Virus genome (UHGV): UHGV-0073881
From: a virus
DNA length: 64,000 nucleotides
Strand: one strand, 5' to 3'
Position numbers and translations under genes: made by a program. Every line of letters begins with the position of its first letter. Position 1 is the stretch's first letter. Below, in pieces: positions 49,313 through 51,125 of this stretch. The notes beneath the pieces are model-generated. The model was not told the origin of the DNA. It searched no databases and was given only the letters and a program-made list of their open reading frames with translations.

Positions 49313-49486
49313 AACTTACTCCTATATAATATTTTGTATACCTACGAGTATAAAAATAAGCTATAACACCTGACTTGTCAACAGATTTTATAGCTTATTT
49401 GGCAGATTTTTTATAAAGCTACTGCCATCCTTCCATACCTTACCACACAAGACCAAACCATGCCGTACTCCACTTCACAGGACCAA

Positions 49487-49527
49487 GCATCACTTAAAAA
49501 TCCTCTTAGAAGACTCTTAAGTGATGC
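49487..49527. promoter_or_regulatory. 41-bp palindrome GCATCACTTAA-N19-TTAAGTGATGC (candidate operator or terminator)
   Basis: perfect 11-bp inverted arms; near-identical copy at 51022-51062. Confidence 0.45.
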
Positions 49528-49685
49528 AATCGAATTTTAATGTAGCTCCGATTAACTACCCATACCTGACCGAACCTTACCGAGCCTTACCAGACACTAC
49601 AGAACAGGACCGCACCGCACCTCATTAAAAGACCCTCTTTAAAGACCTTTTAATAAGGAGCCTCCGAAGAGGCTACCTAGTCAAC

Positions 49686-50126
49686 TTAGAAGGGTTTTCT
49701 ACGTTGCTTGTTAATATTAGCTTTCATAGCAGCTAAGTGGTTTTGCTGTTCAATCAGTCGTGAACGTTCTTGATGGCTAAGTGTCATAGTGTTCACATTC
49801 TCAATTGCTTGAGTGGCTTGTTTTAAAGCACGACCAATCTTACCAGACATTTTACGTTTTGCAATAGTTGCTTGATGTTTTGGCTCAACTACTCGATAAC
49901 CGACACCCATTGAAGCAACCAGATAAATCTTCTCTTCTTTAAGAAGCTTCTCAATAAACTTCTCAAGTCGATTTAGGCGTGTAAGTGCGTAAGCCTTCAT
50001 TTCATCTTCGTACTTAACAATGTCACCTTGATAAGTTGGCTTCACAATACCTAAGAAGGTGTCCATCTCAGAATGTGATACGGTGTCACCGTAACTAAAC
50101 TTTGCTGCTAATGCTTTTGTATTCAT
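49686..50126 (-). CDS. hypothetical protein (146 aa)
   Basis: ORF track; flanked by paralogous intergenic regions. Confidence 0.55.
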   Translation of the reverse strand: MNTKALAAKFSYGDTVSHSEMDTFLGIVKPTYQGDIVKYEDEMKAYALTRLNRLEKFIEKLLKEEKIYLVASMGVGYRVVEPKHQATIAKRKMSGKIGRALKQATQAIENVNTMTLSHQERSRLIEQQNHLAAMKANINKQRRKPF

Positions 50127-50128
50127 AA

Positions 50129-50731
50129 TTAAACATTACCTTCTGAAATAATTTCTACAGAAAAACGACCAAAACGTGGACGCCAATCACCTACACCACA
50201 AAGATTTCCAGCATTTTCCAGAACCATCAAGAGTTCTTCTTTAGTAATTTGTTCTTCATCAAACATCAAACCGAACTCTACAGACCAGTCACGGAAGATT
50301 GGACGATAGCTCATAACTCGTGCTGTACCAACTTTAACGGATTTAGCATAAATGAAATCTGGATTTTTAGCAAGCTCTTTTGGGTTTGCTGGACAGTTCT
50401 TGATAGTCATTGGGAAGACTACATCTGTCAACATAATGGCTCGGTCAATTACCTTACCAAGTTTGTTGAGTTTTGCACCAGACTTGATACAAGCCTCAAT
50501 CATCTCACCATTCATAACAAAACCAAGTTGCTCATCATAGTAACAAGCAGTTACTAGGTGACTCTCTGCTAAGAGAGCATAGTCTTCGTCAGTCTTTTTA
50601 CGTTTACTGGACAGAGACTTGTGATATTTCGTCAGAGGGTTTAATGGGTCTGACAAAGTATCTGCATGGCTCAGGAAAGGACGAGTACCAGTGATTTTGA
50701 TATTTAACAGTTTCATAGCATTTAGCTCCAC
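50129..50731 (-). CDS. hypothetical protein (200 aa)
   Basis: ORF track. Confidence 0.55.
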
Positions 50732-51021
50732 ACTTTAGTTGATTGTTAAGTTGTTTGTAAAGAACCCTCAACAGAAGACTCTTTAGAAACTTGGTAGATT
50801 TTTAACGTGGCTACTACCATCCACCCATATCATACCAAACCTGACCAAATCTTACCGCACCCAACATCGCCTAACCTTACCACACCTCATTAAAAGACCC
50901 TGTTTAAAGACCTTTTAAAAAGGTAAGTCTCATTTTAATGTAGCTGAGACTAACTACCCATACTAAACCTCACCGCACCTCACCGAGCCGCGCATTACCA
51001 AACCAGACCAAACCTTGCCTC

Positions 51022-51062
51022 ACATCACTTAAAAATCCTCTTAGAAGACTCTTAAGTGATGC
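51022..51062. promoter_or_regulatory. second copy of palindrome (ACATCACTTAA-N19-TTAAGTGATGC)
   Basis: 10 of 11 arm positions paired; same loop as 49487-49527. Confidence 0.45.
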
Positions 51063-51125
51063 TGGTGAGTACCCGTTGGTTTATGCTGCTTAGTATACTC
51101 ACCAAATTTTCTAGGTCAACAACTT

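Follow-up and report, generated by a model that had tools for sequence, protein, structure and literature searches.

What are the two long intergenic regions that bracket a pair of small genes in the virus genome UHGV-0073881, and what is the 41-nucleotide (nt) palindrome that each of them contains? The window analyzed here is a stretch of 64,000 nt from this genome, and the regions lie at 49313-49685 (region A) and 50732-51125 (region B). The initial annotation, made from the letters alone, considered the palindrome a plausible operator, with a helix-turn-helix (HTH) regulator gene nearby, and the duplication a possible mark of a duplicated promoter or a cassette boundary. We are highly confident of a different answer, in which 49399-51119 on the minus strand is a type II Viral Interference Programmable Repeat (VIPR) locus of the SUSP1 clade in a Felix O1-like phage. 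This reading is based here on sequence anatomy, orthology, protein fold, tail covariation, and target complementarity. Ribonucleoprotein (RNP) formation, DNA binding, and repression are taken from a preprint; what the hairpins and promoters do, and where exactly the RNAs end, is what we infer.

VIPR is a recently reported way for RNA to read DNA, in which the information resides in two of every five repeat bases. It was described in a June 2026 bioRxiv preprint (10.64898/2026.04.26.720920), with a representative locus in phage SUSP1, a member of the same subfamily as the phage of the window. According to the parts of the preprint consulted here, a VIPR locus comprises a ~20-kDa RAMP homolog (Vipr) and an accessory gene (vap), with long spacers on both sides. 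The guide RNAs (vrRNAs) are ~100 nt long and contain 9-16 YNNGG repeats, in which GGY is conserved and NN hypervariable, followed by a conserved tail of ~40 nt, which forms a pseudoknot in the SUSP1 clade. Double-stranded DNA (dsDNA) is read by the NN dinucleotides, with one base skipped between them, and these parts report no protospacer-adjacent motif. In SUSP1, vrRNAs of ~100 nt are expressed and co-purify with Vipr, and the RNP binds dsDNA and represses transcription; guides of this clade target a satellite phage in E. coli genomes (10.64898/2026.04.26.720920).

The locus in the window is an ortholog of this published model system. SUSP1 shares with it the gene order (ligase, spacer, gene for a protein of 195 amino acids (aa), 146-aa gene, spacer, 126-aa gene), YNNGG arrays within the published range of units, the same tail types, complementarity with a 1-nt skip, and the same family of E. 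coli satellites. Vipr of the window is identical to SUSP1 Vipr at 189/195 positions (96.9%), and Vap to SUSP1 Vap1 at 144/146 (98.6%). The same array extraction applied to SUSP1 returns one vrRNA upstream and three downstream, as published, whereas the window has two and two. Three of the four window guides also differ from those of SUSP1; the vrRNA4 guide is nearly the same as that of the last SUSP1 vrRNA. The region around the locus has ~90% DNA identity to Felix O1-like phages (Ounavirinae) of Escherichia, Shigella, and Salmonella. The backbone of the window phage is only ~90% identical to its nearest database relatives, and VIPR function is here read from sequence.

Two open reading frames (ORFs) do sit between the two regions, as the initial annotation states, and in the ORF map all genes near the locus run along the minus strand. 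On this strand, one module is present twice in each intergenic region: a ~40-nt A/U-rich long hairpin, a 55-65-nt G/U-rich tract, and a short conserved structured element. The vipr gene is flanked by four arrays on its own strand, two upstream and two downstream, whose RNA ends are placed by reference to the published vrRNAs of ~100 nt:

50925-51022, minus strand: vrRNA1 (~98 nt), with 12 core YNNGG units (TGAGG...TTTAG, 51022-50963), the constant TATGG, and a type A tail (GGGTAGTTAGTCTCAGCTACATTAAAATGAGACTT)
50791-50889, minus strand: vrRNA2 (~99 nt), with 12 core YNNGG units, TATGG, and a type B tail (GTGGATGGTAGTAGCCACGTTAAAAATCTACCAA)
49528-49624, minus strand: vrRNA3 (~97 nt), with 12 core YNNGG units, TATGG, and a type A tail
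49399-49487, minus strand: vrRNA4 (~89 nt), with 10 core YNNGG units, TATGG, and a type B tail (AAGGATGGCAGTAGCTTTATAAAAAATCTGCCAA)

Each array starts with constant units from the 3' arm of the hairpin and ends with the constant TATGG, so that counting the latter gives 11-13 units in the window (10-12 core). The A/C-rich plus-strand tracts noted earlier (G/T-rich on the minus strand) are genuine and unique in the window: the plus-strand motif CC-N3-CC-N3-CC occurs 19 times in the 64 kb, and 17 of these are inside the two regions. They are the YNNGG repeats of the vrRNAs, not the iterons for which they had been taken; their strict period of 5 and their hypervariability between near-identical phages had been overlooked. 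Two further shared blocks are found where they had been reported, CCTCATTAAAAGACCCT(C/G)TTTAAAGACCTTTTAA at 49620-49655 and 50885-50920, and TTTTAATGTAGCT...TAACTACCC at 49535-49561 and 50933-50959. What is duplicated is the vrRNA module rather than a promoter, and the two sigma-70-like promoters are not copies of each other.

We compared the locus with 28 IMG/VR loci, fetched with the ligase protein, and four GenBank loci. A logo of the repeat unit over 33 related loci has G at position 4 in 99%, T at position 5 in 93%, and G at position 3 in 85%, with positions 1-2 near random; this logo is partly circular, as the arrays were selected for GGT. An unselected check on 26 relatives and the window used only arrays delimited by conserved flanks: 45/45 have a length of 5n or 5n+1 nt (41-76 nt, 8-15 units), and length therefore changes in whole units only. 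Between near-identical phages the hairpins and short elements are nearly invariant and the G/U tracts almost completely different.

The two types of tail maintain full pairing of their stems through multi-base compensatory substitutions. In tail A, stem 2 is either GTCTCA/TGAGAC or ATCGGA/T(T/C)CGAT, always with 6/6 bases paired, and in the type A tail of vrRNA3 the second stem (ATCGGA/TTCGAT) is compensated in full. For tail B, stem 1 is TGGCAG/CTGCCA or TGGTAG/CTACCA. The order of the half-stems, S1a-S2a-S1b-S2b, predicts an H-type pseudoknot topology for these tails.

The larger cassette protein matches the Vipr profile with E = 1.3e-86. Its AlphaFold2 model (pLDDT 92.8) is a small single-domain RAMP fold with an RRM core and a glycine-rich loop, whose motif includes the invariant glycines G170, G174, and G183; a β-hairpin in the model, residues 122-141, is a candidate thumb. 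The mechanical ORF is 200 aa long, but the ATG at 50716, which gives 195 aa, is the more likely start because the homologs are 195 aa long. Vap1 has weak matches to winged-helix-like folds. Its alignment came from an exhaustive HMMER search, a k-mer-based search having yielded only near-identical proteins. Pfam yields no family for either cassette protein, the ligase and HTH proteins of the neighboring genes being the only matches at curated thresholds, and PHROGs assigns the pair only to families of "unknown function".

Vipr is a minimal relative of CRISPR backbone subunits. Like Cas7, Csm3, and Cmr4, which bind CRISPR RNA in class 1 systems, it has an RRM-based RAMP fold with a glycine-rich loop; in both cases a variable guide is capped by a conserved structured handle and, in the account of VIPR given in the consulted parts of the preprint, a small guide-binding protein interrupts pairing periodically. 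Unlike class 1 CRISPR, VIPR is encoded by a phage and directed against a different mobile element, and its guide is non-contiguous, with 2 of every 5 RNA bases reading 2 of every 3 DNA bases. In 48000-52500 no CRISPR repeat-spacer array is found, and there is no cas1/cas2 or other cas gene among the nearby ORFs, which are the ligase, small hypothetical genes, and the HTH gene. The tie of the locus to CRISPR is the fold of one protein only.

The targets of the guides were sought in E. coli satellites, located through a homolog of the SUSP1 tail gene agp017 that is present in 474/5426 complete E. coli genomes. These satellite islands are ~10 kb long, are inserted in yecE or beside tonB, and vary in gene content; between them they carry genes for a Dam methyltransferase, small proteins, an HNH nuclease, tape-measure and baseplate proteins, and a serine recombinase. 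The first satellite alone gave partial matches only, and eight further islands were added. Scored as NN plus one skipped base, the four guides match as follows:

vrRNA1 guide, 22/24: satellite Dam methyltransferase gene, sense, in frame, with the skip at the wobble position
vrRNA2 guide, 21/24: start of the satellite tape-measure gene
vrRNA3 guide, 17-20/24: one antisense site in the Dam gene of five islands
vrRNA4 guide, 19/20: satellite serine-recombinase gene, in frame, with the skip at the wobble position

With shuffled unit order the maxima are 19/24 for vrRNA1 and vrRNA2, 18/24 for vrRNA3, and 17/20 for vrRNA4, and skips of 0, 2, or 3 bases reach at most 18/24. A rough binomial estimate that assumes equal base frequencies puts a chance score of 22/24 over ~4.6x10^5 positions at about 4x10^-6. 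As a positive control, SUSP1 vrRNAs score 28/30 and 19/20. Among relatives that carry vipr, 42/64 distinct vrRNAs match at ≥80%, compared with 3/64 when the skip is wrong. None of the window guides has a target within the window itself. The satellite functions targeted can now be named as the Dam methylase, the start of the tape measure, and the recombinase.

This locus, re-detected independently and blind from raw sequence, confirms several claims of the preprint computationally in a second phage, as regards the RAMP fold, the anatomy of the repeats, tail covariation, the 1-nt-skip code, and satellite targeting. One satellite island, that of E. coli GN25, has a vrRNA-like array of its own at ~4164 on the minus strand of that locus, with 8 YNNGG units and a variant of the type B tail (GTGGATTGTCGTAGCCACGTTAAAAATCGAC); this fits the preprint's remark, in the parts consulted, that some satellites encode vrRNAs (10.64898/2026.04.26.720920). 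No ORF matching the Vipr profile occurs in the first five of the nine islands, the ones searched with the profile.

Several points weigh against this reading. Its mechanistic steps rest on one preprint that is not peer reviewed (10.64898/2026.04.26.720920), and in the parts consulted it neither mentions the long hairpins described below nor discusses the maturation of type II arrays. The hairpins carry no feature that proves cleavage by RNase III, and their role in processing is purely what we infer. For expression of the vrRNAs in the window phage, the evidence is a set of promoter-like sites. Targets were searched in nine islands out of ~474 satellite-bearing genomes, and these nine contain no perfect 24/24 match. 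The vrRNA3 match (20/24) exceeds the highest null score by a modest margin, and the wobble logic is inapplicable to the vrRNA2 site because that site spans the start of a gene. Finally, phages without vipr keep similar arrays, which means that the arrays do not strictly need a Vipr encoded in cis.

Each vrRNA consists of 10-13 YNNGG pentamers and then a conserved tail of ~35-40 nt, predicted to be pseudoknotted. Vipr is a RAMP protein related to the Cas7/Csm3/Cmr4 backbone subunits, and under the published mechanism its subunits would coat the repeat tract. The protein would hold GGY, which is conserved in every unit, leaving the two variable bases to pair with the dsDNA target; between dinucleotides one target base would be passed over (NNx NNx ...). 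Where the target is coding, this base would usually be the wobble position of the codon, and binding would repress the target. The four guides of the window point at a ~10-kb E. coli satellite island carrying Felix O1-like tail genes, vrRNA1 and vrRNA3 at the Dam methyltransferase, vrRNA2 at the tape-measure start, and vrRNA4 at the serine recombinase. The VIPR system most likely silences a parasite of the window phage. The long hairpins formed by the 41-nt palindrome and its paralog would serve in maturation, most likely as sites for the RNase III of the host or as 5' stems that protect the RNA, and would delimit individual vrRNAs in polycistronic transcripts.

The palindrome itself is indeed duplicated. 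The two copies of its core, CATCACTTAA-N19-TTAAGTGATG, at 49488-49526 and 51023-51061, agree in all 39 nt, with 2 matches at up to 3 mismatches in the 64 kb and 0 in 100 shuffles. The full 41 nt is an exact palindrome in copy A, as had been proposed; copy B has A/C as its outermost pair on the plus strand, which becomes a G.U pair in the minus-strand RNA. Every array has one long hairpin directly 5' of it, formed either by this palindrome (HP1) or by a paralog (HP1'), and one further hairpin lies close to the stop codon of vap:

51022-51062, minus strand: HP1 copy B (the annotated palindrome), immediately 5' of vrRNA1, with its 3' arm in register into YNNGG
50885-50923, minus strand: HP1' copy B, a paralog of HP1 with a different stem sequence, 5' of vrRNA2
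49620-49658, minus strand: HP1' copy A, 5' of vrRNA3, folding at -16.3 kcal/mol sense and -7.3 antisense
49487-49527, minus strand: HP1 copy A (the annotated palindrome), 5' of vrRNA4
49657-49677, minus strand: G+C-rich hairpin with a UUCG tetraloop, just past the vap stop codon, without a U-tract and overlapping the 5' arm of HP1' copy A

As minus-strand RNA the palindrome forms an uninterrupted 19-bp stem of -25.7 kcal/mol (z = -8.5), compared with -14.8 kcal/mol for the plus strand, because several of its pairs are G.U, which are mismatched in the DNA dyad. Across relatives the sense strand folds better in 46/46 distinct hairpin sequences (96/96 instances), with 3.6-4.5 G.U pairs each, and HP1' keeps its helix despite a different outer stem sequence. 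The palindrome is located downstream of the -10 box, within the transcribed leader. The long hairpins have no U-tract and are therefore not intrinsic terminators, of which none was found in 48000-52500. At its gathering threshold Rfam matches only tRNAs elsewhere in the window, and a permissive Rfam search of 49200-51250 gives chance-level matches only.

A perfect RNA helix of 19-20 bp is a classical substrate of RNase III. The long hairpins would be maturation or stabilizing elements, with RNase III as the obvious candidate, and those of vrRNA1 and vrRNA4 are probably processing signals. The RNase III hairpins of phage T7 early mRNA offer a parallel, being near-perfect stems of ~20 bp between polycistronic units and lacking a U-tract. 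In contrast to the continuous stem of the window, however, the T7 sites usually have internal loops. In other VIPR types, hammerhead ribozymes lie between the vrRNAs, according to the parts of the preprint consulted (10.64898/2026.04.26.720920).

The operator originally proposed, with the palindrome bound as DNA by the XRE-type HTH protein in duplicated regulatory regions with iterons, starts from sound observations. The dyad is genuine and occurs twice, the HTH_3 gene lies ~750 bp downstream, and copy B is just past a strong promoter-like site, where a roadblock operator could act. The gene does encode a genuine HTH_3 protein, but it is the third gene downstream rather than adjacent, and it is present in three relatives (L017, L022, and L023) that have neither palindrome nor arrays, so that the presence of the dyad does not follow that of the regulator. 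Moreover, the dyad is imperfect in DNA exactly at the G.U pairs of the RNA, the difference of -25.7 and -14.8 kcal/mol recurring in kind in all 46 variants. Symmetry is kept at the RNA level only, and HP1' retains its pairing although its stem sequence differs, a pattern of evolution that fits an RNA helix and not a site bound by protein. Sites bound by one protein would not leave two of every five positions free, or vary among near-identical phages, as the supposed iterons do. Given this strand asymmetry and the position inside a transcribed leader 5' of an array, we consider an operator very improbable. It is equally hard to credit that the G/T pentamer tracts act at the level of DNA or transcription instead of as guide RNAs, be it as an R-loop/G-quadruplex origin, a hot spot like an immunoglobulin (Ig) switch, or a GGU sponge like CsrB or TRAP targets. 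The tracts have a strong bias of G over C on the non-template strand, downstream of a promoter and beside replication genes, and recombination does occur here, as the number of modules ranges from 0 to 5 across relatives and the cassette is gained or lost within repeats. Yet the GC skew, whose profile was examined as a clue to an origin, merely tracks gene orientation across the window, and 8-15 units per array argues against a ring protein of fixed size. Iteron and operator arrays and the GGA repeats of CsrB or (G/U)AG repeats of TRAP share with the window a short G-rich, non-coding motif about every 5 nt, but here the unit count varies, target information is encoded in the spacer bases, and no cognate regulator co-varies. 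None of these models predicts NN matches to one satellite with a skip of one base, absent with skips of 0, 2, and 3, or the association of arrays with a RAMP-fold gene. The origin, switch-like, and sponge readings were dropped for leaving both unexplained, as were T7-type primase sites (TGGTC), nut-like boxA/boxC elements, Chi-like sites, and Shine-Dalgarno-like ribosome landing pads.

A more serious alternative, possible although in our judgment unlikely, accepts the VIPR locus and assigns the hairpins another role, as a 5' handle recognized by Vipr or Vap1, a transcriptional insulator or attenuator, or a substrate of recombination. The 3' arms are in YNNGG register (TTAAG TGATG; TTTAA TGAGG) and could supply the first protein-bound units, and the deletion junction of phages lacking the cassette falls at the hairpin. 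Maturation devices also vary between clades, given the ribozymes of other VIPR types and a tRNA-like element in two distant loci. This alternative is difficult to reconcile with the published vrRNAs, however, since ~100 nt leaves no room for a full 40-nt hairpin together with array and tail; the stems are also not followed by a U-tract, and a perfect helix of 19-20 bp is a classical target of RNase III. We favor probable processing sites within a VIPR locus.

That tRNA-like element is seen in L146 (740-890, plus strand) and L055 (14800-14934, minus strand), where an array is followed by an acceptor-like stem and T-arm (GGTTCGATTCC). These are more distant VIPR loci (Vipr-profile E = 7e-41 and 4e-40, respectively), and the element points to RNase P or RNase Z as the maturation enzyme, in place of the hairpins found in the window.

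The genes and promoters in and around the locus are, in the order of transcription:

51126-52229, minus strand: DNA ligase, the first gene, before vipr
51092-51119, minus strand: P1, sigma-70-like promoter (TTGACC-16-TATACT) directly past the ligase stop codon, with 10/12 consensus positions
50129-50716, minus strand: vipr (195 aa, RAMP fold); the mechanical ORF is 50129-50731, 200 aa, with a GTG start at 50731
49686-50126, minus strand: vap1, a 146-aa accessory protein with a probable winged-helix-like DNA-binding fold
49353-49381, minus strand: P2, sigma-70-like promoter (TTGACA-17-TATTTT) of the next operon (126-aa, 67-aa, and HTH genes)
after vap1, minus strand: a 126-aa gene and then a 67-aa gene, in the next operon
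48440-48739, minus strand: gene for a 99-aa HTH_3 protein, the third gene of the next operon

P1 is kept in all relatives with arrays, and it presumably drives the upstream pair of vrRNAs together with vipr-vap. P2 is outside VIPR and marks its downstream limit. The -10 region of P1 is situated within an 8-bp inverted repeat (51085-51125, minus strand; GGTGAGTA ... TACTCACC) that is kept in relatives and may form a regulatory stem in the leader. A second site of variation is the edge of the spacer next to the ligase: L029, L013, L030, and L023 have an extra 150-200 bp between the ligase stop codon and P1, apparently a small ORF, which in L030 and L023 seemingly encodes a hydrophobic peptide (both read by eye).

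The suggestion of a cassette boundary is borne out in substance, as some relatives have the two-gene cassette and others do not. The interval between the ligase and the 126-aa gene varies from 89 bp to >2 kb and contains 0, 1, 2, 4, or 5 modules, with or without the cassette. Phage EC6, which lacks it, has a single hybrid spacer in which the promoter-proximal part of region B is joined to the distal part of region A at the palindrome. Its genome has no match to the Vipr profile anywhere (best E = 1.3), and it keeps one module behind the same promoter. Where the cassette occurs, its proteins are 96-99% identical even when the flanking proteins are only 31-93% identical. The cassette behaves as a horizontally exchanged unit. 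Vipr at ≥90% identity is found in 118 phage records, and spacer DNA of the vrRNA type in 231. One of these Vipr genes, 97% identical to that of the window and accompanied by vrRNA spacers, is in "Staphylococcus phage SA1" (GenBank GU169904.1, 91679-92263); a "Staphylococcus" record that matches the DNA of Felix O1-like coliphages suggests a mixed or mislabeled entry.

About half of the related Felix O1-like phages lack vipr-vap, through loss or because they never acquired it, and yet keep orphan vrRNAs that match targets, as 1-2 intact, promoter-driven modules. Intact GG units are as frequent in orphan arrays as in arrays with vipr (0.75 and 0.80, respectively). Satellites are matched at ≥80% about as often, by 8/13 orphan arrays compared with 42/64 in vipr-bearing phages, and with the wrong skip by 1/13 and 3/64, respectively. 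Several guides are common to phages with and without vipr, and modules are therefore exchanged by recombination. The orphans may be recent remnants, borrowers of the Vipr of a co-infecting phage, or decoys. A bolder version, which we regard as rather doubtful, holds that orphan guides function without an effector in cis, by borrowing the Vipr of a co-infecting phage or titrating that of a competitor, and that the modules are recombination units that shuffle guides and vipr-vap. If it were true, module shuffling would be a route to new specificities without an adaptation machinery like Cas1, and the long hairpins would have a dual role as RNase III maturation sites and anchors of recombination. 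The orphan arrays and the strong conservation of the cassette relative to its flanks appear new. Set against the consulted parts of the preprint, four leads are not discussed there, namely a hairpin before every guide, orphan arrays widespread in relatives without vipr, exchange of the cassette, and the identity of the satellite functions targeted.

Arrays of this kind extend well beyond the Felix O1-like phages. A scan of IMG/VR for (GGTNN)6GGT returned at least 120 stretches, and among the matches listed, long degenerate arrays occur in many unrelated viral contigs, outside long ORFs and often several in tandem. A Vipr-profile ORF is found in the same short locus for 33/52 loci with a degenerate (GGTNN)7 array and for 3/68 with a simple repeat, again among the matches listed. 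The 52 loci were chosen for the array alone, and in those inspected such an ORF adjoins the array.

For annotation, the "direct repeats" and long "empty" spacers on record in Felix O1-like genomes since 2009 are guide-RNA genes. The 2009 annotation of phage wV8 (NC_012749) lists a 58-bp direct repeat, DR_4, in both spacers (59418-59475 and 60811-60868), so that part of the vrRNA modules had been recorded, without explanation, well before VIPR was known. No description of these repeats is given in the papers on the Felix O1 genome and on UAB_Phi87.

Elsewhere in the window, 23 tRNA genes are clustered at 16036-21330 on the plus strand, as is usual for Felix O1-like phages. The interval 6600-7100 is non-coding and rich in repeats, with the motifs TAGAAGG, GTTAGA, and CTATATAG, and might be a terminal-repeat or packaging region or a cluster of early promoters. 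Within it, 6805-6923 is the only segment with a strong skew of G over C on the plus strand.

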